This document shows positions 11,451 through 28,893 of a DNA stretch of 64,000 nt, piece after piece. Numbering within the stretch: the stretch's first letter is position 1; the number at the start of each line of letters is the position of its first letter. Source of the DNA: Acutalibacteraceae bacterium (GTDB lineage: Bacteria; Bacillota; Clostridia; Oscillospirales; Acutalibacteraceae); contig JAZQVR010000010.1 of the NCBI GenBank assembly GCA_045631965.1, positions 1 through 64,000 of the forward strand. The letters run 5' to 3'. The notes beneath the pieces were generated by a model that saw only the letters and a program-made list of their open reading frames with translations, made no database searches and had not been told where the DNA came from. The translations under genes and the position numbers were made by a program.

Positions 11451-11473
11451 TTTCCGTCACCTCCACCTTGGTT

Positions 11474-12151: not shown

Positions 12152-12835
12152 TTAAAAGAGTGATGAGAAAACCTGCTGTGAAAGTTCACCGAACAGCGGG
12201 AAGAGAACCGTTACCACTGTACCGAGTGAAAGATAGGGACCCATGGGAACCGAAGTTTTAAGCGAACCCTTTTTGGTTACTACCAGATATACCAAAAAGA
12301 TCATCAAGCCGACCGCCATAATCAGTGCTGCCTGAAGGTATCCGAAAGCACCAAGACAGTAGCCGATTGCCGCGCTGTATTTTACATCGCCTGTTCCTAT
12401 CGGTATGCCTATAAGCATAGGCAGCTGATAGAGAATGAAGCCTGCTGCAAGACCTATAAGTGAAGGAATCAGTACTTCCTTTACCGGGGATCCTGTTGCG
12501 ATTGCGTAGACGATTGCGACGGTTCGGATTATCAGAAGAGCGAGTACAGAAGAATTAGGTATCTTTTTGATATCCAGATCTACAACGCCGATTGAAATTG
12601 CTACCGAAATGTAAGCAATCGCTTCGAGCCTTGCAGCTGTTTCGCTGTACCTCATAAAAGTTACCGCAAACAGAACTCCCGAGATCAACACCCAGGCAAC
12701 TATCAGAGCGATGTTCTTAACCGCTTCGACTTTCGAGGTTTCCTGTGTACGGTGTTTAATCTGGAAAATTGCTATCCGGTTAAAGGCCAATGCCGCGAGT
12801 GTACCGAGCGCTCCGCCGTAAATTGTTTCAACCAT
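12152..12835 (-). CDS. Prepilin peptidase (A24 family, TadV/CpaA-like)
   Basis: 227-aa polytopic membrane protein with conserved Asp-containing segments (VVDLDIKKIP ... GTGDVKY). First gene of the tad operon. Confidence 0.75.
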   Translation of the reverse strand: MVETIYGGALGTLAALAFNRIAIFQIKHRTQETSKVEAVKNIALIVAWVLISGVLFAVTFMRYSETAARLEAIAYISVAISIGVVDLDIKKIPNSSVLALLIIRTVAIVYAIATGSPVKEVLIPSLIGLAAGFILYQLPMLIGIPIGTGDVKYSAAIGYCLGAFGYLQAALIMAVGLMIFLVYLVVTKKGSLKTSVPMGPYLSLGTVVTVLFPLFGELSQQVFSSLF

Positions 12836-13325: not shown

Positions 13326-14564
13326 ATGAACAAATTAACCGTTCAGCAAGCCGCAGAAAAGTGGAATATATCCGTAAGGAGAGTGCAGGATTACTGCAGA
13401 CTCGGCAAAATACCCGGTGCAGAACGTCTGGGCTCAAACTGGCTTATACCGGCAGATGCAATCCGTCCCGTTGACGGCAGAAGCAAAACCGCAAAGCTTG
13501 ATGCACAACGCGATATACCTATGCCGCGTAAAAGTCCTTTCCTTGATATGACAGACCTTTATTCAGAACCCGGTACGGCAAATAAATGTATATTTGCTCT
13601 TTCAAGTAACCCTGAAGCTCAGGCGCTTTTTTCTGCGGAAATAGCATACAGGCGCGGCGAAATAGACAGTGTATACAGATATGTACAATACTTTTTTGAT
13701 AAACATTCCGGCTTGTATTCCGTTATCGGCAGCGGTATGCTGCTTTCGCTTTGTGCAATGTGGACGGGTGACATCAATATGTGGCGACGAGCAAGAAAGC
13801 ATATTTGCGAAGCACCCGTAAAGAACAGTACCGAGCGTGATATCCTTGCTCTTTCACTTGCTGCAACCGACAGCGCAATACGTGCTACGGAAGATTTTCC
13901 CGAATGGTTCAAAAGAGGCTGCTTTGACAGCCTTCCCGTTGATGCTCGCCCTGCAGCTATGGTATATTATCTTAAATACCTTATTGTTTACGCACAGGAG
14001 CTTGCAACAGGCGAGCTGAAACTGCAGAATATACGCGGTCTCGGTCTGATGAGGTGTGTGCCGTATATTGCCGAGCCGATGATAACTGCAGCTCATAGCG
14101 ACGGTTATCTGATTCCTGAAATATATCTGCGCCTTATGTGCGCAATCGCCTGCCAGCAGTGCGGCGATACGGGCAGGGCAATATATCATCTTGATATAGC
14201 AATAGAATACTGCCTTGCAGATGATTTGTTCGGTCTGCTTGCAGAGCAACGCAGACAGCTTGGCAAAATTCTTGATGAAAGACTTGCGCTTGTTGACCCG
14301 TATGCCGTAAAGCGTGTAAAGGATCTGCACAAACGTGTGCATACCGGTTGGACAATTATCCACAACGCAATACTTGAAAGAACAGTTAACGTTGCCCTTA
14401 CTCTGCGCGAACGTGAAATAGCCCGCCTTGCAGTATTCGGACTTACCGACAGACAGATAGCAAATCAGCTTGATATGCCTGAATCACAGGTAAAAAGTAT
14501 GCTCAAATCCGCAAAAGAAAAGACCGGAGTTGATAAACGCTCCGATCTGGCAATGTATATTTGA
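13326..14564 (+). CDS. LuxR-family transcriptional regulator: N-terminal MerR/excisionase-like HTH, central helical domain, C-terminal LuxR-type HTH
   Basis: The C-terminus LTLREREIARLAVFGLTDRQIANQLDMPESQVKSMLKSAKEKTG is a GerE/LuxR HTH. The N-terminus LTVQQAAEKWNISVRRVQDYCRLGKIPGAER is a second HTH. Divergent to the tad operon. Confidence 0.7.
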   Translation: MNKLTVQQAAEKWNISVRRVQDYCRLGKIPGAERLGSNWLIPADAIRPVDGRSKTAKLDAQRDIPMPRKSPFLDMTDLYSEPGTANKCIFALSSNPEAQALFSAEIAYRRGEIDSVYRYVQYFFDKHSGLYSVIGSGMLLSLCAMWTGDINMWRRARKHICEAPVKNSTERDILALSLAATDSAIRATEDFPEWFKRGCFDSLPVDARPAAMVYYLKYLIVYAQELATGELKLQNIRGLGLMRCVPYIAEPMITAAHSDGYLIPEIYLRLMCAIACQQCGDTGRAIYHLDIAIEYCLADDLFGLLAEQRRQLGKILDERLALVDPYAVKRVKDLHKRVHTGWTIIHNAILERTVNVALTLREREIARLAVFGLTDRQIANQLDMPESQVKSMLKSAKEKTGVDKRSDLAMYI

Positions 14565-14706: not shown

Positions 14707-15351
14707 TTATATTGTGTTCTTTGAGAAGATATTTCTGCGATCAATCTCAGCCGCAATTGACTTGATATAATCGGCAGCATCAAACTGTGCGTTATCGATA
14801 TTATCATCGAGAATGATTAACATCTGGCGAATCTCGGCATCCTTTTCCGTAACAACGCAGTCATTGGAAAAGTGAAGCTTTTCTTCGAGAGCGGTTAATT
14901 CTTTCTTGAACTTCTGAGCACCGGGCTTTACCATTACGCATTTAACCAGCTTGCGCATTTCAAGCATGTTGGCCTTTGCACTCTGGACAACATCATCCTC
15001 CTGCTTTCTCTTATTGGAAAAATTCCAAAGGAAAGAGCCGACGGTAAGAAGAGCAATAAATGCTACGATATAGAATGCAAAATATGTGAGGTATCCCTCG
15101 GGGAAATTCACAATATATACTAACGAAAGAATTACAGCTATCGGAACCATTACAGCAGCGCTGATAGCAGCCGTTAACTTTCTGGGGTCACCCTTGGACA
15201 TATAGAATAAGCAAGCTGCAACACCTTCAGCAAGTACAACGCCGAAAAGAGTGATAAGGCACATTGCTTCTAAGAAAGAATCTCCTAAAATGGCAAGGTA
15301 TAAAACAATGGTAATTACAATAGAAGCTATACCACCAATAATGCTATACAT
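14707..15351 (-). CDS. Membrane protein (4 TM helices plus cytoplasmic helical tail); possible YdjH-like partner of the SPFH protein
   Basis: Hydrophobic N-terminal half and charged C-terminal half. Starts 16 bp downstream of the SPFH gene stop. Confidence 0.45.
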   Translation of the reverse strand: MYSIIGGIASIVITIVLYLAILGDSFLEAMCLITLFGVVLAEGVAACLFYMSKGDPRKLTAAISAAVMVPIAVILSLVYIVNFPEGYLTYFAFYIVAFIALLTVGSFLWNFSNKRKQEDDVVQSAKANMLEMRKLVKCVMVKPGAQKFKKELTALEEKLHFSNDCVVTEKDAEIRQMLIILDDNIDNAQFDAADYIKSIAAEIDRRNIFSKNTI

Positions 15352-15366: not shown

Positions 15367-16638
15367 TTAATCCGCTTTTGATCCGCAATTACTGCAGAAC
15401 TTGGTTCCGTCTGCAAGTGCAGCTCCGCAACCGGGACATTTCTTCACCATAGACTTGCCGCAACCGGGGCAGAATTTTGCATTCGGCTCTAATGTGCTGC
15501 CGCAATCCGGGCAAATCACCTGACCGCAGCCGGGGCACTTGTTTGAACCCTCCGGAACATCTGCACCGCAGTTTTTGCAAGCATTAATCTTTTTGCCGCA
15601 ATCAGGACAGAATTTTGCACCTGCTGCATATGATGTACCGCAAGCTGAACACTTCAGTTCAGACGAAGCTTTTTGTGTATTAGCACCGCATTCGGGGCAG
15701 AACTTCAAGTTTTCAGCAATTTTAGCACGGCAAGAAGGACATTCTTTTGTGTTACCCTGGGTTGATAATACAGAGCCCATATTGCCTGCAGCATTTCCGA
15801 CTGCACCGCCGATGCCGAAACCGATGCCTGCACCGATACCTGCGCCCATAACGCCACCTGCAGCACCCTGATTTCCCGCAGCAGTATTCAATGTATCGAA
15901 AGTTCTTTCCTGCTGATAGTTGAAGCCGAGGATATCCATCTCAGCTTTCTTGGCAAGAGCTTCTTTAAGCTTCTTTACGGCAGGATCGTTTTCGGGAACA
16001 CTGATATCATTGATATAGAAAGAGTGTACATTAATTCCGAATTCGGAAAACTCGTACTGAAGCTGTTCGCTGAGAGCAAATGATATCTCTTCCAGATGTG
16101 AATTGATTTCCAGTATTGAAATTTTGGAATCAACAAGACATGATGAAAGTCTATCTTTGACTCGTGTAACATATAATCCTCTGAAGTAGTCAGAAAGAGT
16201 CTGCTTATTGAAGAAATTCATCGTGCCGACGAGTTTTGTAAGGAATCGTCTGGAATCTTCAATCTGTATACCGAACTGACCGAAAGCTCTCAACGGTACA
16301 AAAACACCGTACTTGGGATCCTGAACCTGTATAGGTGTTGTTGTACCCCATTTAATATCCAGCGCAAAAGCTTTGTTGATAAACCAAACTTCAGCAGAGA
16401 AAGGAGATTTACCGCCAAAGGGAATATTGACAAACTTCTGCAAAACCGGAATATTGTCAGTCGTGAGCTTATAATGACCGGGACCGAAAACGTCACAGAT
16501 CTGACCGTTTTTTACCAGAACAGCCTCTTGTGATTCGTTAACAATAAGCTGTGTCCAGGTCGACAACTCTGTGTTGGGATATCGCCAGGCAAAAATGCTG
16601 GCATCCGAATTAAATTTTAATACATCAACAATCGCCAT
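15367..16638 (-). CDS. SPFH/band-7 protein of the YdjI type fused to a Gly-rich linker and a C-terminal array of ~5 Zn-ribbons
   Basis: The core AEVWFINKAFALDIKWGTTTPIQVQD...FGINVHSFYINDISVP aligns with B. subtilis YdjI (AEVLFVNTKEFTVRWGTKQAINIP...). The C-terminus holds repeated CPxCG...CPxCG pairs (CPSCRAK..CPECG, CSACGT..CPDCG, CKNCGA..CPGCG, CPDCGS..CPGCG, CPGCGA..CSNCG). Start is taken at ATG 16638, which has the RBS GAGAGGTG; the longer ORF extension lacks one. Confidence 0.75.
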   Translation of the reverse strand: MAIVDVLKFNSDASIFAWRYPNTELSTWTQLIVNESQEAVLVKNGQICDVFGPGHYKLTTDNIPVLQKFVNIPFGGKSPFSAEVWFINKAFALDIKWGTTTPIQVQDPKYGVFVPLRAFGQFGIQIEDSRRFLTKLVGTMNFFNKQTLSDYFRGLYVTRVKDRLSSCLVDSKISILEINSHLEEISFALSEQLQYEFSEFGINVHSFYINDISVPENDPAVKKLKEALAKKAEMDILGFNYQQERTFDTLNTAAGNQGAAGGVMGAGIGAGIGFGIGGAVGNAAGNMGSVLSTQGNTKECPSCRAKIAENLKFCPECGANTQKASSELKCSACGTSYAAGAKFCPDCGKKINACKNCGADVPEGSNKCPGCGQVICPDCGSTLEPNAKFCPGCGKSMVKKCPGCGAALADGTKFCSNCGSKAD

Positions 16639-16731
16639 TAATATACACCTCTCATAAATATGCGCATTGTTTTTTAGACAAAGATGATTATACAACTTAC
16701 TAAAAAAAAAGTCAATATTTGTAAAAAACAC

Positions 16732-16801: not shown

Positions 16802-17200
16802 ATGAGCAGCTATTGTCCTCAGTGCGGTGCACCTGTTGCAGCTAACGCTGTAAAATGTGATTACTGTAACGCACCTATCGCAAACAACGCACAGCCTGTA
16901 AATCCTGTTGTAAATCCTGTAAATCCTGCACAGCCTCAGGTTGTTGTTGTACAGAACGGCGGCTACAACGAAAGAGCAAACTGGCCTATCAAGAATAAGC
17001 TTGTTGCAGGCTTGTTGGCTATCTTACTGGGCGGTATCGGTGTCCACAAGTTCTATCTTGGCGAAAGCGGTAAAGGCGTTTTATATCTCCTTCTCTGCTG
17101 GACCGGTATTCCCGCTATCATTGGCCTTATCGAGGGTATCACAATCCTCACTTCCACTGATGAGAATTTCCAGATCAAGTACAGGTGCCGCATAGGCTAA
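16802..17200 (+). CDS. N-terminal Zn-ribbon plus TM2-domain membrane protein
   Basis: CPQCGAP...CDYCNAP ribbon and a Pro/Val/Asn-rich linker. TM2 signature LLAILLGGIGVHKFYLG...GIPAIIGLIEGI. Confidence 0.7.
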   Translation: MSSYCPQCGAPVAANAVKCDYCNAPIANNAQPVNPVVNPVNPAQPQVVVVQNGGYNERANWPIKNKLVAGLLAILLGGIGVHKFYLGESGKGVLYLLLCWTGIPAIIGLIEGITILTSTDENFQIKYRCRIG

Positions 17201-17250: not shown

Positions 17251-17427
17251 TTGCCGTAATTTCATCCGTTTTTTCAAAAGCCGATGCAGTGCCTGACGGT
17301 CAAAAGTGCAAAACTATAAGTTTTTTTGCGGATTTTTTTGTGAAAATAAGATAATTTTTCTTGATATATATTAATAATTATGTTAAAATATTTAGAAAAG
17401 TAATGTTATTTTAAAATTTTATTTAAT

Positions 17428-17840: not shown

Positions 17841-19586
17841 ATGAAAATCGGTATAGACTTCGGCAGTACATATTCAACTATATCCAAATACAACAGCATT
17901 ACTGATAATGTGGAAGCACTCACAGCTTCAGAAGGTGCGCCTGCCAGTATTCCTTCAGTGGTCAGCATTTCCAAAAAAGGTGTCATTACCTGCGGCCACG
18001 GTGCAAAGGAACAGGTCGGTAAAAAATCCGTTCGTGTTTACGAAGCTTTTAAAATGCTGCTTAACGAGCCCAATCAGGAAATGCTCTGCCGTCGAGGCTA
18101 TGACGACGAGTACACTCCTCGCCACATTACCAAAACTTTTCTTGAATCCACATTACACGGCATAATGCAGCGCGAAAGCCGCGACAGCATCGAAAACATC
18201 GTTATTTGTGTCCCCGAAATATGGGGCAACAAGCTGAACACTCTTGACGGCCGTGCGATTTTACGCAACGTGCTCAAGCAGGAAATTGATATCCCGGTAA
18301 ACAACATTCAGGTTGTAACAGAGCCGGAAGCAGCCAGTGCTTTTATCGCTTACAACTACGAAAAAGAAACACAAAAGAATTTTAACGGCCACCTGTTGCT
18401 TATCGACTACGGCGGAGGCACATTGGACCTCACCCTTACCTGCGTAACATCCCAAGGTCAGGGTACTATGGAAATCGGCTACCGTGAAGGCGGCGGCGCA
18501 GGCGAAAACCATCCCAATAACCGCGGCAGCGGCGACATCGGCAAAGCCGGCATAGCATTTATGCAGGGCGTCGTACTGCGTGCATTACAGGATGAGGATT
18601 TATTAACCGACAACGATACCGTAGATTATACCGACCCGGAATTTGTCGCAGCCGTAAAAGATCTTGAAAGCCAGATGAAAAGTGCTGAACGAATCAAAGA
18701 CATCGAAGATGTTTTCGAAGAATTCGGCAGCTACCGTAATATAAAGAAAATTTTAGATGACGATCCCATTGATTTCATTTCATTGGAATATGACGGTGAG
18801 GAAGTAAGCGTCACTTACCAACATCTTTTCCGTGCATACAACGAAATTGTTGAGCCTGTTTTGTTTGAAGAAGTAAGCAAAATCAACCAGCTCGTTGAGC
18901 AACATATCGGTGAGGATCCCTGTCAGCCTGCCGCCGGTGTGCGTGACGATTTCAAAATCGCACTGGTTGGCGGTTTCAGTTCCTTCTATCTCGTTAAAAA
19001 GCAAATCGCAGAGATATACAATATTGACCCCAACTCTACCATCGACCTGCGAGTCAAGAACGTTTCTGCCGACAAGCAGGAGCAGGCTATATCGCTCGGT
19101 GCTGCATTATTGGCAGCAGGCAAGGTCGTTCTGCAGAAAACAGCACGCTACTCTATCGGAATTTACGCTTCCGGTTCCGACGGCCGCAAGAGACTGTTTT
19201 ACGGCATCAGATATCATCAGGCAGTCGACACAGGCAAGCCGTACTTCCTTTGCTTCAATGACGAAAACTCCGATGACCCTGCCAACCGTGTTACCTACGG
19301 TGCACTGCACGGAAACATCAAAACCTTCGCCATCGAGTTTACCGACCGTAAAAACCACGGCGGCCTTATGAACCTGAAGCCTGAAATGCTGGAACGCTTG
19401 CAGCGTCTGCCCGAAGAAGGTTTCTGGAATCTCGGCTTTTCTATGGACGAAAGCGATGTTATCTCGTTCCATATCGTGCCCAGACCCTTACCGGGAATAA
19501 GCACTACAGAAGAATCTATTGTAATTCCTTTAGACAGTTATTCAAAAATGTTTGATTTGACCGATGTAAAAGAGGTGACGACATAA
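17841..19586 (+). CDS. Hsp70-like (ASKHA superfamily) ATPase, nucleotide-binding domain only, with ~200-aa C-terminal extension; non-canonical DnaK paralog
   Basis: Phosphate-1 IGIDFGSTYST, phosphate-2 LLIDYGGGTLDLTL and adenosine-like IALVGGFSSFYLV motifs in Hsp70 order. No substrate-binding beta-sandwich domain. Start is taken at ATG 17841, which has the RBS GAGGAG. The upstream extension of the ORF overlaps the DUF1294 gene and was rejected. Confidence 0.7.
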   Translation: MKIGIDFGSTYSTISKYNSITDNVEALTASEGAPASIPSVVSISKKGVITCGHGAKEQVGKKSVRVYEAFKMLLNEPNQEMLCRRGYDDEYTPRHITKTFLESTLHGIMQRESRDSIENIVICVPEIWGNKLNTLDGRAILRNVLKQEIDIPVNNIQVVTEPEAASAFIAYNYEKETQKNFNGHLLLIDYGGGTLDLTLTCVTSQGQGTMEIGYREGGGAGENHPNNRGSGDIGKAGIAFMQGVVLRALQDEDLLTDNDTVDYTDPEFVAAVKDLESQMKSAERIKDIEDVFEEFGSYRNIKKILDDDPIDFISLEYDGEEVSVTYQHLFRAYNEIVEPVLFEEVSKINQLVEQHIGEDPCQPAAGVRDDFKIALVGGFSSFYLVKKQIAEIYNIDPNSTIDLRVKNVSADKQEQAISLGAALLAAGKVVLQKTARYSIGIYASGSDGRKRLFYGIRYHQAVDTGKPYFLCFNDENSDDPANRVTYGALHGNIKTFAIEFTDRKNHGGLMNLKPEMLERLQRLPEEGFWNLGFSMDESDVISFHIVPRPLPGISTTEESIVIPLDSYSKMFDLTDVKEVTT

Positions 19587-21419
19587 ATGAAATTCAATCG
19601 TTTACAGGCCTCTATCTCAAATAATGCCGACCAATCGCCGTCGCTTTATATGGCTCTTTGTGCGATAGAATCTTTGTTTGCCGATTTAGAAGAAAGCTAC
19701 GGTTCAGATATCAACCTTTGTCCGGTCGGCGATGAGCGCCTTCCTTCCAAGCTTGTATGGTTGTGCCGCGTTATCAATGAAATCTACCGCGACAATAGCG
19801 ACGAGCTTCAGCGTAACCGCAGCCGTCTTGATATGGCTATGGAAAAGCTGAAAGAAACTCAAAAAGAGCTTGAAAAATCTGCCGCTGTTTGTGAAGAGCT
19901 GGCGAAACTGAATTCAGAATATGCCGTATTACAGCAGAAGCTGGAGAGCAACGGTGCTGCGGCTGCAGAATACGAAAAAATTTCTGCCAAGTGCCGTCAG
20001 GCAAAGCAGACGTTGGAGCAGCTCGGCACTTTTGATTTTGTTGCAGCGGAAAATGAATTAAAGCAGCTGACTGCTGACATCGCTTTGAAAGAAGGCGAAA
20101 AGTCTGCATTATTAACCAAACTCAATCAAACCCGTGAGTGTGCAGATGAGCTTGAGCAAGAAGTTGACGAATTAAAGACTAAAGAACAGGATTTACGCAA
20201 TCAGCTTTCAGCTTTGCAAGGAAAAAAGAGCTCAATCGGCGAAGGAAACGAAAGCCTGCTCGATGAGATTGACAGGCTGACAACCAAGCTCGCCTCTTCT
20301 CAGGATGAATTAAGCGACCTGGTCGCAAAACGCGATGACATCCAGAACAACATACTTATACTTCAGGGAAAAATCGCAGAATTCCGCGACGAAAGCCTGA
20401 CAGCTAAGCACGCAGAGTTGGAAGCTGTAAAAGAAGAAGCAGAGCAGCTTGAGGACGAACTTAACGCATTTGAACAGGATTGCTGCAAAATAAAAGATAA
20501 GCGAAATCAGCTTCTTATAGATATCGCTCACAAAAAAGCCGAAAACGAATCATTAAACGAAAAGTTTGCAGACACTCAGCAGAAACGAGATAATCTTGAA
20601 AAAGAAAAGCTTTGTTTATCGGCAACTTTATCTGACAGTGTGCAGAAGCTCGAATCGCTTCAGACTGAGGTTGACGAGCTTAATCAGAAAAAGCTCCCCG
20701 AAGTCTGGGAACTTCAGACGCAGGAGCAGTGTCGCAAGACAGAATTAGAGCAAAAAGTAACTGAAGCAGAAAATCAGTTGATTGTTCTTCAGGAAGAAAT
20801 TGCAAAACTCAACGACCGTCTTCCGAAGCTTGAAGAAGAAGTAGAAAACAACCGTGTAGTCTATAAAGCTCTTGCCGCAAGCTGTGCAGTCAGCTCCGGC
20901 GAGCTTGAAAGCCTTGAAAAGCAGATTGAAGAGCTTCGCAACAATACGGATGAACAGAAGCTTGTGGTTTATCGCAAGCAGCTGGAAGAAAAGCAGCAGG
21001 AGCTGGAAAACATTCAGCTTGAGTGTGAACGGATGAAGCAAGAAACTGCAGATCAAGGAATAAAACTCGAACAGTTACAAGAAGAAAGAGCAAGACTGCG
21101 CGACCTTAAAAACCGCCACGAACAAGGTGTAATGGTTACGGAAAAGCAGCTTCGTGAGCTTGAAACCGTTGTCAACGAGGAATACATACATGAAGTAATC
21201 TCGGCAGAAGAACGCATCAAGCTTCTGGAAAATGTACGCAGCAAATTATCCGCCTCCATCACAAATATGCAAAAAATCTTAGGCAAAGCTCCTGTTCAGG
21301 AACCGATTTCATTGGAAGACCAACTGAAATTTGAGTTACGTGAGCTTCGAATCAGAACCGATGATTTGCGTTGTTCTCTTGTAGAATGTGCTCACAGCCT
21401 TAAATTGGAGGAACGCTAA
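19587..21419 (+). CDS. Large coiled-coil protein (610 aa; ~90-aa N-terminal globular region then ~500 aa SMC-like heptad repeats)
   Basis: Continuous E/K/L/Q-rich heptad sequence. Its start codon abuts the Hsp70-like stop (TAAATG), which suggests translational coupling. Confidence 0.55.
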   Translation: MKFNRLQASISNNADQSPSLYMALCAIESLFADLEESYGSDINLCPVGDERLPSKLVWLCRVINEIYRDNSDELQRNRSRLDMAMEKLKETQKELEKSAAVCEELAKLNSEYAVLQQKLESNGAAAAEYEKISAKCRQAKQTLEQLGTFDFVAAENELKQLTADIALKEGEKSALLTKLNQTRECADELEQEVDELKTKEQDLRNQLSALQGKKSSIGEGNESLLDEIDRLTTKLASSQDELSDLVAKRDDIQNNILILQGKIAEFRDESLTAKHAELEAVKEEAEQLEDELNAFEQDCCKIKDKRNQLLIDIAHKKAENESLNEKFADTQQKRDNLEKEKLCLSATLSDSVQKLESLQTEVDELNQKKLPEVWELQTQEQCRKTELEQKVTEAENQLIVLQEEIAKLNDRLPKLEEEVENNRVVYKALAASCAVSSGELESLEKQIEELRNNTDEQKLVVYRKQLEEKQQELENIQLECERMKQETADQGIKLEQLQEERARLRDLKNRHEQGVMVTEKQLRELETVVNEEYIHEVISAEERIKLLENVRSKLSASITNMQKILGKAPVQEPISLEDQLKFELRELRIRTDDLRCSLVECAHSLKLEER

Positions 21420-21917
21420 ATGAAATGCCTTGTTTGCGGCAAAGATTTCGATTCATCCGAATGTCCCAGATGCCATTTCCCTGATGTTCAGCTTATAGGT
21501 GATCGTGAAGAAGCATTAAAAAAAATGCTGCCCACAATCAACCAATACAGAAAAAATTTTGCCGATGCGGTAAAGCTCTCCCTTATCACCTACCGCTGGA
21601 AAGATCAGGACGGTTATCTGGTGCTCAACAATAAAGATGTGACACCCATAGGTACGGCAGAAGAGTTGATGAAATCAGAAAAATGGCTGGAAACCAAATT
21701 TGCCCGTATTGCCGACAGCGACAAGATTACGGTTACTGTCTGCATCGAAATGGGTGACGATAAAAAGAACGTTGAAATCTCCGTTCCCAATTTAATGAAA
21801 GCGGAGTTGCAACAGTTGGGTGCCCGTGTTGACGACAGCTTCAACCTCAGCTTGATGTTGCGTAACAACACCGAAAAGCCCACAATATCCCAACCGGTCG
21901 ATTTATTTGCCGGTTAA
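21420..21917 (+). CDS. Zn-ribbon protein (165 aa)
   Basis: N-terminal CLVCGKDFDSSECPRCH ribbon. Its start abuts the upstream stop (TAAATG). Confidence 0.5.
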   Translation: MKCLVCGKDFDSSECPRCHFPDVQLIGDREEALKKMLPTINQYRKNFADAVKLSLITYRWKDQDGYLVLNNKDVTPIGTAEELMKSEKWLETKFARIADSDKITVTVCIEMGDDKKNVEISVPNLMKAELQQLGARVDDSFNLSLMLRNNTEKPTISQPVDLFAG

Positions 21918-21949
21918 CGGTTGTAAAACGACAGAAAGGAGCGTGAGCC

Positions 21950-23608
21950 GTGTTTTCATCCAAAGATTTGATATCGTTTGTCTTTGCCAACGAAAACGAT
22001 ACATATTATGGCGATGATTTACTGAAAAGAGATTTAAATCAATATTTGTGGGAACGGCTCCACGAAAACTACGAATCGGTTTACTTTCTGAGTGCTGAAG
22101 ACGACAGCTTCCGTGTACGTTCATACGGTGATCTGAGATGTAATGAATACACGCCGAAAAAGAAAAAAATATTCGGTTTGCTGGGCAGCAGTTCAGACCA
22201 AAGCGATCTGGGCAACTGGATTCAGCGGCAACTGTGTGCAAAATCGGATTCCACGGCAGCTTTTGTCTGCTCTCTTGATGATTTTTGTTCGGTTTTATCC
22301 GACCCGAAATGGTATCCGACACTTGAAAGTATTGCCGAAGATAAAAAGCGTACAGGTATTTTTGTGCTGACCGCTTCCGCTACGGCAGAGAAATCAGCCA
22401 ATATGTTATTGACAAGCCCCGTATTCGAAAAGCTTCACGAAACCGCAATTACGGATTTGCGTGACGGTGCCCCAAGAGATTTATACGGCACACTCAAAAA
22501 ACGCAAGTGGGACAATTGTATTTTCCTCAACAGCTTCACCTGGGAACGTGTTCACGATTTGTTGCTGCATCTGGTTGTCGAGTATCCCGACCGTTACGAA
22601 AGCTGCGAAAAGCTGGATACGATGTCGGAATATCTGTACACATATTTGCGTGACCCGGATTTTGCCCGTGAAGAGTTTTTGTTCGCAGAAGAATACGGCT
22701 TCGGATATCCGATGTACGAAGAGCTGTTTACCCGACTCAAAAATGAGCGCAACTGGAAAAATTTCGAAAAAAAAGTTGCTGCTTTTGAAAAGAGTGAAAG
22801 GAAACGTCAATGCACGGACTTATCGCCAAACGACGTTGCCGTGTTGCGTTCCCCGAACTCTTATGCGGGAAGATGTATGATAATCCGGTTACCCGACTGG
22901 CTCAACGATAACCCGCAGGAAGCAGAAAAGGCTCAGGCTACGCTTCAGAGTATATATTCCGAAGTTATTGCACCCAAGAGCAAGGTGGAAAATCCGGAAA
23001 TTATATCCTTTGCCGAAAAGCTGATCAACCGCCTCGATACGGTTGCAGTCGGCGATGCAGAATCTTACAATTTTGTATTGAGCACTTTGAAATTCTGCGT
23101 CGACCACATTTATTCACCGCATAACGATGAAAAAACTGCCGGCATTTTGTCAATCCTCCAAAAGAAGCAAGATGCCATCGGAATTTTCGATCAGCATTTT
23201 ATGACGCAAAGAAATTTAAAATTAATGCAGATATCTGTAAACGAAGGATCGATTCAAAGCATTACGCTTCAACAGCTGAATGCAAATTTCTATATTTTGG
23301 ATCAGGCAAAGAAAAAATTTGTAGATTTAATAGACTCTATGGAGCTTAATTTGGAAATGTCTGCAAAGTCATCATCTATCTCCGAGGTTCTGGAGACTCT
23401 TACGCTTGAAATTAAAAATATCGAAAAAAATCTCGCCGACATTCCGAAAAACAAACCGTTATCGGATGTTGCAGTAATCGAGCCGTTGACGCCTATGCCC
23501 GAACCCGAACCCGAAATATATCCCGAGCCAGAACCACCTGAAAAAGAGCAAGAGGATATATTTGTAATAACAGATGAAGATCGCAACTTCATTCCCCCTA
23601 TCAGATAA
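21950..23608 (+). CDS. Hypothetical protein (552 aa) with acidic Pro/Glu-rich C-terminal tail
   Basis: GTG start with the RBS AAAGGAG. No recognisable catalytic motifs. C-terminal PMPEPEPEIYPEPEPPEKEQED followed by a short hydrophobic terminal motif. Confidence 0.45.
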   Translation: MFSSKDLISFVFANENDTYYGDDLLKRDLNQYLWERLHENYESVYFLSAEDDSFRVRSYGDLRCNEYTPKKKKIFGLLGSSSDQSDLGNWIQRQLCAKSDSTAAFVCSLDDFCSVLSDPKWYPTLESIAEDKKRTGIFVLTASATAEKSANMLLTSPVFEKLHETAITDLRDGAPRDLYGTLKKRKWDNCIFLNSFTWERVHDLLLHLVVEYPDRYESCEKLDTMSEYLYTYLRDPDFAREEFLFAEEYGFGYPMYEELFTRLKNERNWKNFEKKVAAFEKSERKRQCTDLSPNDVAVLRSPNSYAGRCMIIRLPDWLNDNPQEAEKAQATLQSIYSEVIAPKSKVENPEIISFAEKLINRLDTVAVGDAESYNFVLSTLKFCVDHIYSPHNDEKTAGILSILQKKQDAIGIFDQHFMTQRNLKLMQISVNEGSIQSITLQQLNANFYILDQAKKKFVDLIDSMELNLEMSAKSSSISEVLETLTLEIKNIEKNLADIPKNKPLSDVAVIEPLTPMPEPEPEIYPEPEPPEKEQEDIFVITDEDRNFIPPIR

Positions 23609-23699
23609 TTGTAAAAAACAGATTCTATCTGTTAATAAATTATAATCAAAAATTATGCAGCTTTGCTGTGCGGGGTGTTACCCCGGAAAGGAGAAATAT

Positions 23700-24992
23700 A
23701 TGCCAAAACCTAATCGTCAGAACCAAACAAAAGCCGGCGGAGGTCGTTCCTCTAACCCCTTCATCAACTGGTTGGAAAATCGTAAGGAGCGTCGTCGCCA
23801 GGCAGAGGATGAGGCTGCCCGACTGATTACCAACAAAATAGCCGAGAATGAAAACATCATTGTCGACAAGCTCAGTTCTATCGACTTTTACAACAGCAGA
23901 TTACCTAAGGCAGTATTGGATGCCAAATCAAGAGAGGAACAGCCCTGCGGTGACCTTGAATATGCTGCTCGCGGTATTATCAATATGCTTCGCAAGAATC
24001 CCCAGACCATAAAGATGGACATCCGCAAGTTTGACCAGAAGTTATTGACATTGGTACTTCTCTTCAAGCAGACTGTTGAACAGGGCGATGTACGTGCTGC
24101 TTATGCTGCAAAAGGCGCTATCGTACGAGCTATCGCAGATATCCGCTGCCGTATTCCTCAGGATCAGCCCGAACTGGCAACAATGTTCGTAGAAGCTAAC
24201 TCAAAGTATCTTGATCAGTGGATTACTTTGGTATTATTGGCACAGGTTGCTGACCGCACCAAGCAGAACGCTGATACACACAGAGCAAGATTCGAACAGG
24301 CACTCAATCGCCATGAAGAGGATGTTGCTGAATTCCATAAGCGTATCCGTGAGGATGATGCTTTGCTTCTTGCTTTCCAGAAGCTTGTAGACCATACCTC
24401 AACCCAGAATCGTACCGAATGGGATAAAAATGAGCGCGATGTTCACCGTCTGATGGTTGAACGCCGTATGGAAAAAGCAAATCTTGATATAAACAACATT
24501 CTCTTGCAGCAATCCGAAATGGATCTGAGCGCCAAGGAAATGCAGGTAGAAATGCTTTATTCCAAGGTTGCAGCATTACCTATAGTTACCGACCCCGACC
24601 TGATGAGCAAATATCAGGAAAGCATCGACGAGCTGTTCAAGCAGTTGGCTGAAAGCGATGCACAGATTGATGAAACTCTCAAATCAATGGATGAAATTGA
24701 AGGTAATATCCAGCAGTTGAATGTCGCACCCGGCGCTGCACGTGCTATGGAAATAGCTGCCGAACAAGCTGAAAAAGTTCTTGCAGAAATCACCAAGCTG
24801 CAAAACGACCAAGCAGGCAAAAATACTCTTCACGCAAAGAAAATGCGTGAAGCACTGGGCATTCTTACCGAAGAGCAGCTTGCTGAGCAGAAGCGTCAGG
24901 CTGACCTTGAAGTACAGCGTGCCGCAGAAATTATGAGAGAACAGATGGAAGTGCAAGAACAAGAGCAAGAGCAGGAAATGCTGATAAACTGA
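23700..24992 (+). CDS. Hypothetical all-alpha-helical protein (431 aa), basic N-terminal region and acidic Glu/Gln-rich C-terminus
   Basis: Start at ATG 23700, which has the RBS GGAAAGGAG. The sequence is helix-prone throughout and ends MREQMEVQEQEQEQEMLIN. Confidence 0.45.
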   Translation: MPKPNRQNQTKAGGGRSSNPFINWLENRKERRRQAEDEAARLITNKIAENENIIVDKLSSIDFYNSRLPKAVLDAKSREEQPCGDLEYAARGIINMLRKNPQTIKMDIRKFDQKLLTLVLLFKQTVEQGDVRAAYAAKGAIVRAIADIRCRIPQDQPELATMFVEANSKYLDQWITLVLLAQVADRTKQNADTHRARFEQALNRHEEDVAEFHKRIREDDALLLAFQKLVDHTSTQNRTEWDKNERDVHRLMVERRMEKANLDINNILLQQSEMDLSAKEMQVEMLYSKVAALPIVTDPDLMSKYQESIDELFKQLAESDAQIDETLKSMDEIEGNIQQLNVAPGAARAMEIAAEQAEKVLAEITKLQNDQAGKNTLHAKKMREALGILTEEQLAEQKRQADLEVQRAAEIMREQMEVQEQEQEQEMLIN

Positions 24993-25029
24993 TACAGTTT
25001 TGTATTGTCTAATGAAAGGAGAGTCCCAT

Positions 25030-25764
25030 ATGGCGATTATCGATACAATCCACGAAACAAAAAACACCCTTGAAGAACTCAAGAGAAAATACAAATTCAG
25101 AAAAGCACGTATGGCACACAAAGATGCCGTTGAGCTTCAGGTTACATTAGCAAAGTGCAGAGGTAAGCTCGAAATCTGCAAAAACGATTTTAACCGTACA
25201 ATCAAAACCCAAAGCAGAAACATCAACGCCGGCAAAAAAATCGGCGCAGATACTCTCATTCAGGAGCAGATTCTTTGGGATGCCGCACTCGGCTATATGC
25301 TGGTACGTGATGCAATCTTTTCACTTGAAACAATCAATTCCTATGATTCCGTTTCACACGCATACGAAATGCTCGATGCTGCAGTAAAACAGATGTCCGG
25401 CAAAAAGAGCATTTTCCCCGTAGCAAAGCCCGGCTCTGCTAAAGAGCGTAACGCTTACGGCTACATAAATTCCTCTGCTGCACAGAAAGAAAAAGAGGAG
25501 CTGTTAGACGGATTTTTCGAGGCGCTGAAGCTTGACGGTGATATTGAAGCTCACCTTGCCAGCGCACGTATTCCCGGCGCAACCAACGCAGAGTTACGCC
25601 GTGCATATGTAGATGATAAGCTTTCTGACGGCGAGTTAGATTCTGACCTTGACGATTATATGGCTCGCCTCAATGCCGTTGACGATGCCGCAACACCCGC
25701 CGCAAACTTTGACCAGAATATGGATACCCTTATGGATATCCATCCGCCCAAAGATTCACTGTAA
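25030..25764 (+). CDS. Hypothetical helical protein (245 aa), basic N-terminal half and acidic C-terminal half; candidate ESCRT-III/PspA-superfamily-like protein with a MIM-like C-terminal helix
   Basis: The N-terminus MAIIDTI...KRKYKFRKARMAHK is basic. The C-terminus SDGELDSDLDDYMARLNAVDD is an acidic amphipathic segment resembling MIT-interacting motifs. Length and charge asymmetry are typical of ESCRT-III/PspA family members. This is inference only. Confidence 0.4.
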   Translation: MAIIDTIHETKNTLEELKRKYKFRKARMAHKDAVELQVTLAKCRGKLEICKNDFNRTIKTQSRNINAGKKIGADTLIQEQILWDAALGYMLVRDAIFSLETINSYDSVSHAYEMLDAAVKQMSGKKSIFPVAKPGSAKERNAYGYINSSAAQKEKEELLDGFFEALKLDGDIEAHLASARIPGATNAELRRAYVDDKLSDGELDSDLDDYMARLNAVDDAATPAANFDQNMDTLMDIHPPKDSL

Positions 25765-25779
25765 GAAGGAGATATTACT

Positions 25780-27165
25780 ATGGCATGGGATAACAGATAC
25801 GACATCAGCGGTACCGGCTATACACAATTAATGGATGAAAAAACCACGCGTTACACTAACCTTGTACGCAAGGCTGAACAGATTAACCGTGATCATGAAG
25901 GCAAGCCCACAAAGGAAGAGGCAAGCTATTATTATGAGGCTGCAAAAATCTGCGAAGAGATTATGAATATGAATCTTAAGCTCAGAGCAATTTACGAGCA
26001 GTGGAAATATCGCAAAACAGATTGTGAAGACAGAATAAGACAGATTACCAACATCCTCGCACCCAAGCCCGTTGCTCCCGAGCGTGAGCCTGTCGCTGGG
26101 CGCAACACTCAGAGAAATTCCGATTCTGACAAGCAGGCTGCAGATTCAAAAGCTCCTACTACCAGCAAGTCCGGCTTCACTACCGAATTTGCATCCAAAG
26201 AAGTTCCTGTAGAAATGATTGAAAAGTGGTTCAAGGATGTTTCCGACAAGGGCTTTGAATATGTTGTCGGCAGAACTGAATTGAAAGAACGCCTTATGAA
26301 TGAGGCTGCAGGCTTCGGTTGGGATAAGGTTGACTCCGCATTGGATATCAACCCTGTTCAGTGCTATTTCCTCTACGGCCCTCCCGGTACAGGTAAGACA
26401 CACCTCATCAAGGCTTTTGCTGCCGAGCTCAAGAAGAAGGGCTTCAACTTTATGCAGTTGACAGGCAGCGATATCCACAACAGCTATGTTGGCGTAGCAG
26501 AAAAAATCGTTGCTGCAGCTTTCAACGTTGCAACAGAAAAAGAGCCCTGCCTTATCTTTATCGATGAGATTGATAACCTCTGTGTCAGCAGAGACGGCAA
26601 GGCAGAAGGCCACGAGCAGCGTCTTACGGTTTCATTCCTTGAGGCATACAATAAGTTTAAAGAATCAGGCAAGCGCGTAATTTTCATCGGCGCTACCAAC
26701 CATCCCGGTAAAGTTGACGAAGCTATGCTTGACCGTGTAAGCCTCATCAAAATTCCGTTACCCGAAGCAGAGGACAGAATCGGTTATTTCGACAGAATGA
26801 TCAACGGAGTCGGCGAAAACAAGGGTATGGTTAAACTTACTCTCGAAGAAGGCTTCACATTCGAAGAAATGGCTGACGCTACAGATAACCACAGCTATCG
26901 TGACCTCGACCGTTTGAAGAACTCAATGCTCACCAAGCTCAAGAGTCAGGCTATTGCCGAGTATACTGTGCTTGATGAGGACGGTAAGGTAGACCAGCAG
27001 GCTACCGATGCAAAGGCAAGTGAAGCTATCATCAGCGGTGAGATTATGCTTACCCGCGAGCTCTTCGCACAAACCCAGAAAGAAAATCTGCCCAGTGACA
27101 AGACAAAGAGCCGTCAGGAGCTCAAAGAATTTGAAGAGCGTGTTTCGGCTATTGCAAATGAGTAA
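25780..27165 (+). CDS. AAA+ ATPase of the Vps4/katanin/spastin ('meiotic') clade with a putative N-terminal MIT-like three-helix domain and an S/T/K/P-rich linker
   Basis: Walker A YGPPGTGKTH and Walker B LIFIDEIDNLCVSR closely match Vps4 IIFIDEIDSLCGSR. The sensor-1 and second-region-of-homology segment IFIGATNHPGKVDEAMLDRVSLIKIPLPE matches Vps4 [30 protein letters not shown]. Residues ~20-95 (TTRYTNLVRKAEQ...EEASYYYEAAKICEEIM...LRAIYEQWKYRK) are predicted as three helices reminiscent of MIT. Confidence 0.8.
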   Translation: MAWDNRYDISGTGYTQLMDEKTTRYTNLVRKAEQINRDHEGKPTKEEASYYYEAAKICEEIMNMNLKLRAIYEQWKYRKTDCEDRIRQITNILAPKPVAPEREPVAGRNTQRNSDSDKQAADSKAPTTSKSGFTTEFASKEVPVEMIEKWFKDVSDKGFEYVVGRTELKERLMNEAAGFGWDKVDSALDINPVQCYFLYGPPGTGKTHLIKAFAAELKKKGFNFMQLTGSDIHNSYVGVAEKIVAAAFNVATEKEPCLIFIDEIDNLCVSRDGKAEGHEQRLTVSFLEAYNKFKESGKRVIFIGATNHPGKVDEAMLDRVSLIKIPLPEAEDRIGYFDRMINGVGENKGMVKLTLEEGFTFEEMADATDNHSYRDLDRLKNSMLTKLKSQAIAEYTVLDEDGKVDQQATDAKASEAIISGEIMLTRELFAQTQKENLPSDKTKSRQELKEFEERVSAIANE

Positions 27166-27209
27166 AAATTCAAGTTCACCCAAAATGCTGCTGAAAAGGA
27201 GTGTGTGAT

Positions 27210-28220
27210 ATGGAAAAAGAAATTCAAGCTTGGCTCAAAGGCATCTGTGACGTTTCTCAATTCAGGCTGGAATATTGGAAAGCCCGTGAATTAGACGACC
27301 CGGATGGCTGGGGAAGCCTTTTAGCACCTTCTTTTCAGGACGGCGACTCCGTCAGCGGCAGCGGTATTCTTTTAACCGGCGGCGACAGTCACAGTAAGAT
27401 ATCTTTTGCCATGCAGGTGTTGAATCTGCTCAAGCCCGAAGCATACGATGGAGTGTTCATTAGCGGAACAGACTTGGGTGCTGACGGTTTTGCACAAACT
27501 CTGAAGAAATTGAATAGCCTGTTCGACTATTTCAACAACAAAGGAATGGGCTTATGCCTTATTCTCGATGACTTGGATGAGTATGCTTACAGACGAAATC
27601 TTCTGCAGTTTTTAGGTCATAAGCTTTGCGAGTACAATATGTACGGCGGAGAGCTTGCTCCTTTGTTTTTGCTCATTATGGATGAACACGAGCAAGATAT
27701 TCCCGCTTTGCTCAGAGATTGCTTACAGCTTTGCCGTTTGCAGTTGCCTAACAAAGCCAAGCGCAGCGTCTATCTTGAGATTCACGCCAAATCATTGCGA
27801 AACTACCTCTCGCTTGAAGTATTTGCTCAGGCGACGGAGGGTGCAAGCTATGTACAGCTGCTGGATATGATTACTTTGGCAGAGAATTATATCGACAGTC
27901 TCGACGGACGCGGTATATCCGACGATGAGCTGAAAGCGTTTCTGGCAGACCAGATGCCGAATTGCACATCGGACAATCCGTTGAATGAAATCAATAAATC
28001 TATACAGCAGATGATTGAGCAACTCAAGAATTTGCCTGTCGGTGGCGGCGGAGGACCATATACACCACATAAACCAATTGACCCGAAGCCTCCGTTAACG
28101 AATGACAATCGCGTAACTCGTGAGGATATTGAGAATATGCCTCCGAAGCAGCTTGCTACAGAGCTTTTTGGAGAAGATCGTGTAAAAGAGTTACTGCAAC
28201 CTGCTGTTATTACGCAGTAA
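27210..28220 (+). CDS. Degenerate AAA+-like protein (predicted inactive pseudo-ATPase paralog)
   Basis: The AAA-like order of motifs is kept but catalytic residues are lost: the Walker A position is GILLTGGDSHSKIS (no GKT), the Walker B-like position is LCLILDDLDEY, and the C-terminal end is LQLPNKAKR (compare IPLPE). Start at ATG 27210, 9 nt after the RBS AAAGGAG. Confidence 0.45.
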   Translation: MEKEIQAWLKGICDVSQFRLEYWKARELDDPDGWGSLLAPSFQDGDSVSGSGILLTGGDSHSKISFAMQVLNLLKPEAYDGVFISGTDLGADGFAQTLKKLNSLFDYFNNKGMGLCLILDDLDEYAYRRNLLQFLGHKLCEYNMYGGELAPLFLLIMDEHEQDIPALLRDCLQLCRLQLPNKAKRSVYLEIHAKSLRNYLSLEVFAQATEGASYVQLLDMITLAENYIDSLDGRGISDDELKAFLADQMPNCTSDNPLNEINKSIQQMIEQLKNLPVGGGGGPYTPHKPIDPKPPLTNDNRVTREDIENMPPKQLATELFGEDRVKELLQPAVITQ

Positions 28221-28227: not shown

Positions 28228-28262
28228 CAAAAATCCGGAACAGATGTTCCGGATTTTTTATT
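28228..28262. terminator. Bidirectional rho-independent terminator between converging operons
   Basis: atccggaacagatgttccggat hairpin flanked by an A-run 5' and TTTTTTATTT 3', between the stops at 28220 (+) and 28276 (-). Confidence 0.65.
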
Positions 28263-28275: not shown

Positions 28276-28893
28276 TTACCTGGCTGTTTTTTTGTTTTTA
28301 TTAGCGGAATAAGTATTGAGCTTTGCACCGCAGTTGCAACAATACTGGCTGTTAGGGCTGTTGTTTGTATTGCAGACACTGCATATCCGTGCAGTCTTAA
28401 CATACGGATTGGGGCGACTCGGAGCTTTAGGTCTCTTGTCGTATGCAGGTTCCTTCGGCTCGGTATGCTGCCGCTCATTGAAACTGCCGGATATGTTAAT
28501 AAATTGTTGCTTATCAAAACGGCCGGATTTTGCACTGCTCAGAATTTTTTCAACAGCAGACAGCACATTATCATCCCACTGCTGATTTTTTATCAAAGCA
28601 AGCGTTTGCTCTACGGATGGCTCCGGTGGAGGATTCCACAGTATTTTAAACAGTGAAACCGCAGGTGTACGAGACTTAATTACCTGCAGAGTAGGATACA
28701 GCTCGTAATTACGGCTGTTATCAAAACCGCATTTTTCGCAAAGAGGTGTTCTGTTCTGCGTTCCGCAAACAGTGCAGATATGTGAGCATTTACCTTTTGC
28801 GTTTACTGAAGCTGCTTTGTCGGCAGACTTATTTGGGGTACTATTGGATAAACTGTTACCAACAGTAAAATAATCGTTGTTTTTGCTGTTCAT
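28276..28893 (-). CDS. Double Zn-ribbon protein (205 aa)
   Basis: Two CxxC...CxxCG ribbons (CTVCGTQNRTPLCEKCG; CSVCNTNNSPNSQYCCNCG) separated by a ~110-aa domain. Confidence 0.5.
   Translation of the reverse strand: MNSKNNDYFTVGNSLSNSTPNKSADKAASVNAKGKCSHICTVCGTQNRTPLCEKCGFDNSRNYELYPTLQVIKSRTPAVSLFKILWNPPPEPSVEQTLALIKNQQWDDNVLSAVEKILSSAKSGRFDKQQFINISGSFNERQHTEPKEPAYDKRPKAPSRPNPYVKTARICSVCNTNNSPNSQYCCNCGAKLNTYSANKNKKTAR

Follow-up and report, generated by a model that had tools for sequence, protein, structure and literature searches.

An Hsp70-like, coiled-coil and zinc-ribbon trio heads an eight-gene cassette of gut Clostridia and may form the core of an undescribed conflict system

Hsp70-like proteins built from a nucleotide-binding domain (NBD) and a substrate-binding domain (SBD) have already been predicted in conflict systems (PMC11090510, PMC7159879). 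The CnuD and CnuCD proteins of CoCoNuT systems and the NxD-McrB fusions (PMC11090510), as well as the DO-GTPase-tubulin-HSP70 systems (PMC7159879), have divergent Hsp70 units of this kind and a patchy distribution, and the CoCoNuT and DO-GTPase operons are rich in coiled coils, Zn ribbons, cold-shock domains, AAA+ ATPases (SpoVK/Cdc48-like), and HerA/FtsK ATPases. Here we analyze a gene cassette that, together with its relatives, resembles them in these respects. It lies in a 64,000-nucleotide stretch (the window) of contig JAZQVR010000010.1, from assembly GCA_045631965.1 of an Acutalibacteraceae bacterium. It starts with three genes, the trio, for an Hsp70-like protein (Hsp70L), a coiled-coil protein (CC), and a Zn-ribbon protein (ZnR), followed by five more that we call pD, pE, pF, AAA, and pH. 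Compared to CoCoNuT/McrBC and DO-GTPase systems, the cassette has no McrB-type GTPase, McrC/DUF2357, HEPN, HEAT, tubulin, or TRAFAC GTPase that Pfam, NCBIfam, or PADLOC would recognize, and the catalytic residues of Hsp70L are invariant, whereas the motifs of CnuD, going by its published description, are partly degenerate (PMC11090510). Literature searches found no description of the cassette.

We propose that an undescribed multi-protein system, scattered horizontally among gut Clostridia, has the trio as its invariant core, and that its likeliest role is an anti-phage or anti-mobile-element one. We favor this reading tentatively, and would still give a slight edge to its being wrong. The strongest support for the three genes acting together comes from distant relatives of Hsp70L (~30-35% identity) on four metagenome contigs, labeled L170 to L173 in our collection of loci, which keep Hsp70L, CC, and ZnR and swap all else. 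L170 has a 940-aa fusion of a pD-like protein and Trypsin_2 upstream. In L171, a cold-shock domain is fused to ZnR. Common to L172 and L173 are a Zn-ribbon protein with transmembrane (TM) helices at its C-terminus, a HerA/FtsK ATPase of 835 aa, and an HExxH protein, and L173 also has two AAA-AAA-Trypsin_2 giants upstream. Since only the trio persists while the other modules are exchanged, we take it to be the conserved functional core; and since L170, L171, L172, and L173 all keep the three genes, the unit is a trio and not a pair.

How widespread is the cassette? We scanned one genome per species (185,579 genomes) with a single peptide pattern, so that the count is a lower bound, and found ~172 loci. 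All of the 80 that we retrieved are from Clostridia (Faecousia/Oscillospiraceae, Lachnospiraceae, Ruminococcus, Blautia intestinihominis, and Hominifimenecus). Close homologues of Hsp70L are also abundant in gut metagenomes (665 matches). For a set of 86 loci, we called open reading frames (ORFs) and built iterated hidden Markov models (HMMs) from the window proteins. Hsp70L, CC, ZnR, pD, pE, pF, and AAA occur together in 47 of the 48 species-level loci that have sufficient flank, at Hsp70L identities down to ~33%, and pH is also near-universal among the 48. There are three gene orders: that of the window, one in which pD has moved upstream of Hsp70L, and a rearranged one in which Hsp70L sits beside ZnR and not CC (L070, L083, L085). 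Intergenic gaps cluster at -4 to +3 nt across loci, and the genes flanking the cassette vary from one locus to another. Two divergent cassettes, of gene orders A and B, are found within single metagenome-assembled genomes (MAGs) in three cases: L024 and L038 (RUG10851), L022 and L064 (RUG475), and L016 and L039 (E09__bin63). Their presence in the same MAG suggests that the A and B copies are not redundant.

An earlier note on the window, made from its sequence, had singled out Hsp70L and CC as a pair, possibly an ATP-driven remodelling unit, and had asked whether the pair is conserved elsewhere. It is, both in the 47 of 48 loci and in the distant variants. A joint ATP-driven remodelling role is also reasonable, because the linkage of Hsp70L, CC, and ZnR is conserved even in those variants. 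What does not stand is the pair as the unit: Hsp70L and CC head an eight-gene operon that also encodes the AAA ATPase, and the three rearranged loci keep Hsp70L by ZnR instead of CC. That ATPase is of the Cdc48/Vps4 class, and any mechanism must include it.

The positive strand of the window carries a tight gene array at 17.4-28.3 kb, in which the eight genes form a single operon (17841-28220, 10.4 kb; Table 1). We conclude this from the gaps of 0-46 nt, the ribosome-binding sites (RBSs), and the strong terminator that closes the operon at 28229. The three reading frames that the earlier note reported for the trio hold as given in Table 1, and the genes are real: Hsp70L has 665 full-length homologues, and a search at E<=1e-30 gives 199 clusters of 50% identity. 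The TAAATG sequence reported at the Hsp70L/CC and CC/ZnR junctions is there too, and Shine-Dalgarno-like GAGGTG or GGAGG sequences lie 7-13 nt upstream of the CC and ZnR starts, inside the preceding gene. The Hsp70L stop had been described as overlapping the CC start, but it directly precedes the ATG, with no nucleotide between the two or shared by them; at homologous loci, overlaps of -4/-1 are frequent. All cassette proteins are acidic, cytosolic, and without TM segments. Six of the eight have no Pfam or NCBIfam family match, and for ZnR, pD, pE, pF, and pH neither Pfam, NCBIfam, nor PHROG gave a match.

Hsp70L is an Hsp70-type ATPase, as had been claimed from its phosphate-1 (IGIDFGSTYST, residues 3-13) and phosphate-2 (LIDYGGGTLDL, residues 186-196) motifs, both of which we find. 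The Pfam HSP70 match is limited to residues 3-202 (E 1.4e-9). A profile built from 60 family members retrieves only Hsp70s from the PDB (best 4e-19), with the motifs aligned to those of BiP. In the alignment of the same 60 sequences, D6, G8, K71, E161, P162, D189, GGGTLD191-196, and G377/G378 are invariant, with T10 among the invariant or near-invariant residues. These are the phosphate-1, catalytic Lys, NEPTAA, phosphate-2, and adenosine elements of Hsp70, and because the catalytic and nucleotide-binding residues are invariant, we expect Hsp70L to hydrolyze ATP. MreB/ParM/actin and sugar kinase, which the earlier note had raised as possible identities, are rejected by both the PDB profile search and Foldseek: the 114 profile matches inspected (E<=1e-5) and the top 50 Foldseek matches are all Hsp70 or Hsp110. 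The sole trace of anything else is a weak match to a PHROG 'partition protein' (1.3e-3). Hsp70L also falls outside DnaK and HscA, as anticipated: its NCBIfam scores, 41.1 and 40.6 bits, are far from the cut-offs of 822 and 708.

On one important point, the structure tells a different story from the earlier note, which had Hsp70L as a truncated paralogue of NBD only, lacking a substrate-binding domain. The AlphaFold2 (AF2) model (pLDDT 91, pTM 0.89) has a beta-rich domain at residues ~427-581. Its best PDB match by Foldseek is the lid-less DnaK 7kzu (E 6e-23, TMq 0.62, 613 columns), while the NBD-only entry 7rax scores lower (TMq 0.50). The best structural matches are lid-truncated NBD+SBDbeta forms of DnaK and BiP in the docked, ATP-like state, and Ssb is also among the matches. 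The Hsp70L consensus TAPYSIG at the domain boundary resembles the VTPLSLGIE with which SBDbeta starts in Hsp70s. SBDbeta is thus kept, so Hsp70L is not an NBD-only truncation. The protein ends at residue 581, straight after the beta domain, and what is missing is the helical lid (SBDalpha) and the C-terminal tail. The predicted structure shows Hsp70L as an ATPase and peptide-clamp Hsp70, complete except for lid and tail.

How does it differ from the canonical Hsp70s (DnaK, HscA, HscC, BiP)? Fold and domain order (NBD, linker, SBDbeta) are the same, and the equivalents of the canonical catalytic residues K71, E175, D199, and T204 are kept, but the structure-based identity is only 15-18%. Hsp70L, unlike them, lacks the helical lid and the C-terminal tail and has neither a J-protein nor GrpE as a partner (DnaJ and GrpE domains are absent from the cassette proteins), and its gene belongs to a dedicated operon whose other members include coiled-coil, Zn-ribbon, and AAA genes.

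The CC protein ranges from 218 to 850 aa across loci. In 81 homologues, the first ~180 and the last ~100 residues are always present and best conserved, and the middle is variable in length. This pattern fits a scaffold with its function in the two ends, and the chain may double back into an antiparallel hairpin. The C-terminal sequence of type-A CC proteins is CAxSLKLEER (in the window, the C-terminus at 21390-21419). The heptad-rich coil gives weak matches to the coil regions of SMC, Rad50, JetC, and LmuB. The earlier note's label of SMC-like does not survive. The matches extend only over the coil and fall far below the cut-offs (61 vs. 300 bits, and 50 vs. 567), there is no Walker A, and we recognized no hinge or Zn hook. 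More generally, an SMC/Rad50 identity is rejected by coil-only matches of 50-61 bits against cut-offs of 300-1000, and CC lacks the N- and C-terminal ABC ATPase head motifs of the SMC/Rad50/MukB proteins.

ZnR is the most constant neighbor of Hsp70L, and stays adjacent to it even in the rearranged L070, L083, and L085. The four ribbon cysteines (C3, C6, C15, C18) are invariant in 62 sequences. The ~140-aa domain after the ribbon looks beta-rich from its sequence, and has no family or PDB match. When we searched by profile for fusions of ZnR, the 36 matches were all close relatives, without any new architecture. Extra stand-alone pairs of Hsp70L and ZnR occur beside a full or partial cassette at ~10000-12300 of L053 and ~10000-12220 of L073, which reinforces the view of ZnR as a dedicated partner of Hsp70L.

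The seventh gene encodes what is predicted to be an active threading unfoldase of the Cdc48/Vps4 class, in the classic clade of AAA ATPases. It matches PF00004 (E 2e-33, 116 bits), and its best PDB matches are VAT/Cdc48/AFG2 (1e-41). All the classic elements are found: Walker A (G200-K206), Walker B (D262-E263), sensor-1 N307, and arginines R319 and R374 are invariant, and there is an aromatic-hydrophobic-Gly pore loop (YVG, 236-238). Its N-terminal ~95 aa look helical and have no fold match. The eighth protein, pH, is a degenerate paralogue of AAA. The two align by hhalign at 99.9% (E 1.2e-33), and the Walker A of pH is eroded (TGGDSHSK in the window), with only G57 invariant.

Between the trio and the ATPases are three helical proteins. 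pD has no Pfam, NCBIfam, PADLOC, or PDB match, and hhalign against AAA and pH (0.2-0.7%) does not support it as a third AAA-like protein. A helical domain, C-terminal in pD, is common to pD and pE (hhalign 97.3%, E 2.4e-11). pE is helical, has no family match, and is present in 48 of 48 complete loci. An acidic/Gln-rich linker leads to its C-terminus (24950-24992 in the window), where 48 of 72 distinct tails have Asn as the last or the last but one residue. An HbYX (Hb-Tyr-X) tail is rejected, as only 6 of the 72 fit and the general feature is the C-terminal Asn, and a comparison of pE with pF as a possible paralogue was negative. pF (210-270 aa in its homologues) is helical, its N-terminal half basic and its C-terminal half acidic. 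In many homologues, the C-terminus is an acidic amphipathic helix (DIDELMRNL in a type-B example), and the window protein (C-terminus at 25700-25764) has the LxxRLxxL-like DDYMARLNAV. Several loci have tandem pF paralogues. The conserved extreme C-termini of pE, pF, and CC could be docking motifs for the N-domain of AAA or the SBD of Hsp70L.

Is pF an ESCRT-III protein? Its length, its charge split, and its acidic tail with a terminal amphipathic helix are typical of that class (Snf7/CHMP/CdvB). In the AF2 model (pLDDT 66.7), built on a type-A alignment of lesser depth, a helix of 70 residues precedes shorter ones. Foldseek finds nothing significant for it: the best match is Vipp1 at E 0.17, and 8 of the top 25 are of the ESCRT-III superfamily. 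Sequence-level ESCRT-III/PspA membership is rejected by the PDB profile search and by a Pfam scan of 63 members. The modeled fold is possibly ESCRT-III-like, which we regard as a lead and not a result.

A gene for a further ATPase is a frequent companion of the cassette. This protein, which we call SWIM-HerA (~530-690 aa), combines a SWIM-like CxC...CxH finger at the N-terminus with a HerA/FtsK ATPase, and its gene directly adjoins the cassette in 26 of the 86 loci, upstream of Hsp70L or just after pH (among them L007:8370-9971, L003:8299-9972, and L008:8246-9970). It matches, with 555 bits (7.6e-167), the part of the PADLOC DndH model for the C-terminal ATPase. Compared to DndH, the C-terminal HerA/FtsK ATPase part is the same, but SWIM-HerA has no N-terminal DndH domain, and the DndF and DndG genes are missing from the cassette. 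The closest relative of the window cassette, L007 (88% Hsp70L identity), has SWIM-HerA, and the DNA similarity between the two starts 18 nt before Hsp70L. The HerA/FtsK domain has repeatedly been captured by anti-invader systems ('HerA/FtsK capture'; Rakesh et al., PMC10853773), and the SWIM-HerA ATPase domain belongs to that pool.

Distribution, modules, and neighbors together make the conflict role the likeliest. The distribution is patchy, the modules are swappable (trypsin, the TM Zn-ribbon protein, HerA/FtsK), and DndH-type HerA and repeat proteins lie nearby. Mobile-element or restriction-type genes are neighbors in L001, L003, and L170. We also count in favor of this role the kinases among the flanking genes, the vWA-kinase triad downstream in the window that comes back near the cassette elsewhere, the MAGs with two divergent cassettes, and the precedent of the predicted Hsp70-like conflict proteins. 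As to how the trio would work, we envision an ATP-gated sensor or switch: Hsp70L would clamp a partner or target protein by an extended segment, with ZnR as its dedicated adaptor in place of a J-protein and CC as a scaffold. That ZnR carries a Zn ribbon, and in one relative a fused cold-shock domain, is a hint that it may bind nucleic acids. The AAA/pseudo-AAA ring would thread the helical pD, pE, and pF, possibly via their conserved C-terminal tails. The output would be a helical polymer, possibly ESCRT-III-like, whose assembly and disassembly are under the control of ATP.

Several observations weigh against a conflict system of this kind. The window cassette has no recognizable effector (nuclease, toxin, or other), and the window has no SWIM-HerA homologue (tblastn, E 1e-3). 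PADLOC-DB v2 has no specific match to any cassette protein, only generic ones to AAA (IetA/TRIP13) and to the coil (LmuB/JetC) and weak non-specific ones of pF to Cas11a/Csn2, with none for Hsp70L, ZnR, pD, pE, or pH. Several loci lie among housekeeping genes (L005, L167). No member of the Hsp70L family is found in IMG/VR, INPHARED, or PLSDB (the IMG/VR matches are canonical giant-virus Hsp70s at 22-28% identity), so that a phage or plasmid origin is rejected and mobility is inferred from the patchy distribution alone. Polar residues are hardly ever invariant in pD, pE, and pF, which makes the proposed output a guess. And the AAA N-terminus does not seem to be a MIT domain, the mark of Vps4 and CdvC, which binds the MIM tails of ESCRT-III proteins. 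A Pfam scan of 51 N-termini and the PDB profile search are both negative (one member reaches 0.012 to NRBF2_MIT), and hhalign against a hand-typed MIT alignment (VPS4) gives 0.7%.

The proposal has a bolder form. The lid-less Hsp70, with its own CC scaffold and ZnR adaptor, and the Vps4/Cdc48-like AAA hetero-ring may jointly control ESCRT-III-like polymerization, as a transferred analogue of the eukaryotic/archaeal ESCRT-III-Vps4 system and of Hsp70 uncoating, possibly acting as an abortive-infection effector. The trio would then be a new family of modular ATP-gated switches plugged into different effectors (AAA and helical polymer, trypsin, TM protein and HerA/FtsK). We consider this doubtful.

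What else could the cassette be? The most interesting alternative, which we think unlikely, is a bacterial ESCRT-III/Vps4-like system for membrane remodelling or repair, physiological and not defensive. Here pF (and perhaps pE and pD) would polymerize, AAA and pH would be the Vps4/CdvC-like disassembly ring, and the trio would be another chaperone of assembly and disassembly, in the way that HSP70B-CDJ2-CGE1 serves VIPP1. The features of pF described above speak for it, namely its size, charge split, acidic amphipathic tail, tandem paralogues, and the ESCRT-III share of its Foldseek matches; so do the membership of AAA in the classic clade, with Vps4, CdvC, and spastin, and the SPFH/Zn-ribbon and TM2 genes just upstream in the window. 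Each of these has its counterweight. The PDB profile search and the Pfam scan of 63 pF members found no Snf7, PspA, or Vipp1, the pF model is moderately confident only, and its structural similarity is not statistically distinctive. Compared to the described ESCRT-III/Vps4 systems (archaeal CdvB/CdvC; bacterial PspA/Vipp1), the cassette has no sequence-level similarity, no MIT domain that we could detect in AAA, and no identified membrane-binding element: its proteins have no TM segment, and N-terminal amphipathic anchors were not searched for. The SPFH and TM2 neighbors recur in 0 of the 86 loci. Finally, a patchy, multi-copy distribution misfits a housekeeping role.

Improbable, in our view, is a transferable proteostasis or stress module, in which Hsp70 and AAA form a bi-chaperone disaggregase (cf. 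DnaK-ClpB and the heat-resistance islands) with the helical proteins as holdases or adaptors. A seemingly intact Hsp70 with SBDbeta and a putative threading AAA are indeed together in one operon, as in the Hsp70-ClpB/Hsp104 bi-chaperone, and all proteins are cytosolic and acidic. The ClpB M-domain docks Hsp70, and the long coiled coil, as a possible coupler, recalls it. Yet the AAA is a single-ring, classic-clade ATPase with a pseudo-AAA, not ClpB/Hsp104; the coiled coil is a separate 610-aa protein; and J-domain and nucleotide-exchange co-chaperones are absent: none of the loci has a J-domain, a GrpE, a small HSP, or a protease. Five dedicated, fast-evolving partners are hard to reconcile with general proteostasis, as are distant variants with trypsin, HerA/FtsK, and TM proteins.

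Less probable again is that the cassette assists a machine for DNA transfer, secretion, or mobile elements, with ATPases that would serve conjugation or export and not defense. HerA/FtsK/TrwB-like ATPases lie alongside in 26 of the 86 loci, as well as in L172 and L173, and L001 is flanked by DUF3991/Toprim, YodL, and DUF3846 genes that we read as those of a conjugative element; but the window cassette has neither HerA nor any membrane or secreted component other than the optional DUF1294 protein, the plasmid and phage collections are negative, and no relaxase, T4SS, or T7SS genes are conserved nearby. We hardly believe in a lineage-specific cytoskeletal, cell-division, or sporulation apparatus of Clostridia, since the restriction of the family to that class (Oscillospiraceae, Lachnospiraceae, Ruminococcus, Blautia) and its several long coiled-coil or helical components are set against its presence in only ~172 of 185,579 species genomes (the lower bound above), its variable neighborhoods, its two divergent copies per MAG, and its exchangeable partner modules.

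Table 1. Features of the cassette and its surroundings in the window, in order of position
Feature	Position	Strand	Remarks
Flp-like pilin ORF	11892-12086	-	judged by eye from sequence
A24 prepilin peptidase	12152-12835	-	
412-aa regulator	13326-14564	+	N-terminal helix-turn-helix HTH_17 (excisionase/MerR-like), C-terminal LuxR/GerE helix-turn-helix
Unannotated 214-aa protein	14707-15351	-	membrane-embedded look from sequence
SPFH/Band_7_1 protein	15367-16731	-	fused to about five Zn ribbons
Zn-ribbon + TM2 protein	16802-17200	+	
Promoter-like site, TTGATA-17-TAAAAT with TG	17361..17389	+	upstream of DUF1294 gene; weak, from consensus scan only
DUF1294 small membrane protein, 102 aa	17428..17736	+	Pfam DUF1294, E 1.8e-21
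Hsp70L, 581 aa	17841..19586	+	lid-less non-canonical Hsp70; NBD, linker, SBDbeta
CC, 610 aa	19587..21419	+	coiled-coil protein; conserved ends, variable-length middle
ZnR, 165 aa	21420..21917	+	N-terminal 4-Cys zinc ribbon, ~140-aa domain
pD, 552 aa	21950..23608	+	N-terminal domain of unmatched fold, C-terminal helical domain
pE, 430 aa	23700..24992	+	ORF opens 23655; ATG at 23700 chosen for its RBS
pF, 244 aa	25030..25764	+	ORF opens 25000; likely start 25030
AAA, 461 aa	25780..27165	+	predicted active classic-clade ATPase; PF00004 match
pH, 336 aa	27210..28220	+	degenerate AAA paralogue; ORF opens 27201; likely start 27210
Bidirectional intrinsic terminator, 13-bp stem	28229..28258		nine bases past last stop
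205-aa protein, C-terminal Zn ribbon	28276..28893	-	convergent to operon end; weak Pfam zinc-ribbon matches
Ser/Thr kinase	28959-29939	-	downstream triad
Unannotated 323-aa protein	29939-30910	-	downstream triad
vWA protein	30997-31710	-	downstream triad

The best candidate for a promoter near the start of the operon is the site upstream of the DUF1294 gene, and transcription may possibly begin there. The DUF1294 gene adjoins the cassette in 11 of the 86 loci, on either side, which makes its product an occasional accessory. Downstream, homologues of the 205-aa Zn-ribbon protein occur near the cassette in nine loci; the one in L067 is in an RCC1-repeat flank family, and the one in L007 matches the ZnR HMM. 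It is possibly a loose accessory. The triad beyond it (vWA protein, unannotated protein, and kinase; 28959-31710) is TerY-P-like, with no phosphatase recognized. In two distant loci, L070 and L072, all three genes are again found less than 5 kb from the cassette, and in a third, L086, only the vWA gene is. Kinases also recur in the cassette flanks more generally. RCC1-repeat beta-propeller proteins flank the cassette in eight loci (L030, L043, L050, L052, L055, L067, L076, L077), and leucine-rich repeat proteins of the DUF285/BspA type in seven (L008, L042, L047, L049, L051, L058, L066), one of them with a kinase-like N-terminus.

Upstream, the SPFH/Zn-ribbon protein is one that we take to be YdjI-like, and the 412-aa regulator sits between the SPFH gene and a Tad/Flp-type pilus locus on the negative strand (2595-12835), with TadE/G-like, T2SSF, T2SSE ATPase, ParA/TadZ-like ATPase, and RcpC/CpaB genes. 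A functional link of the SPFH/Zn-ribbon, TM2, and LuxR genes to the cassette is rejected, as none of them recurs in the 86 loci, and neither does the gene for the unannotated 214-aa protein.

If the trio is indeed a self-standing ATP-gated module, it would be an Hsp70 that works without lid, J-protein, or exchange factor, and with a private coiled-coil and Zn-ribbon partner instead, which would mean a different regulation of Hsp70. The accessory genome of gut Clostridia would also gain a new multi-ATPase system, in which the trio comes in fixed combination with a Cdc48/Vps4-class AAA pair and fast-evolving helical proteins. With its 10.4 kb and clear boundaries, the cassette is directly testable by heterologous expression. 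And if pF were truly ESCRT-III-like, one bacterial operon would link Hsp70, AAA unfoldases, and ESCRT-III-type polymers, and that likeness would bear on the evolution of membrane-remodelling machinery and on the mechanisms of abortive infection.

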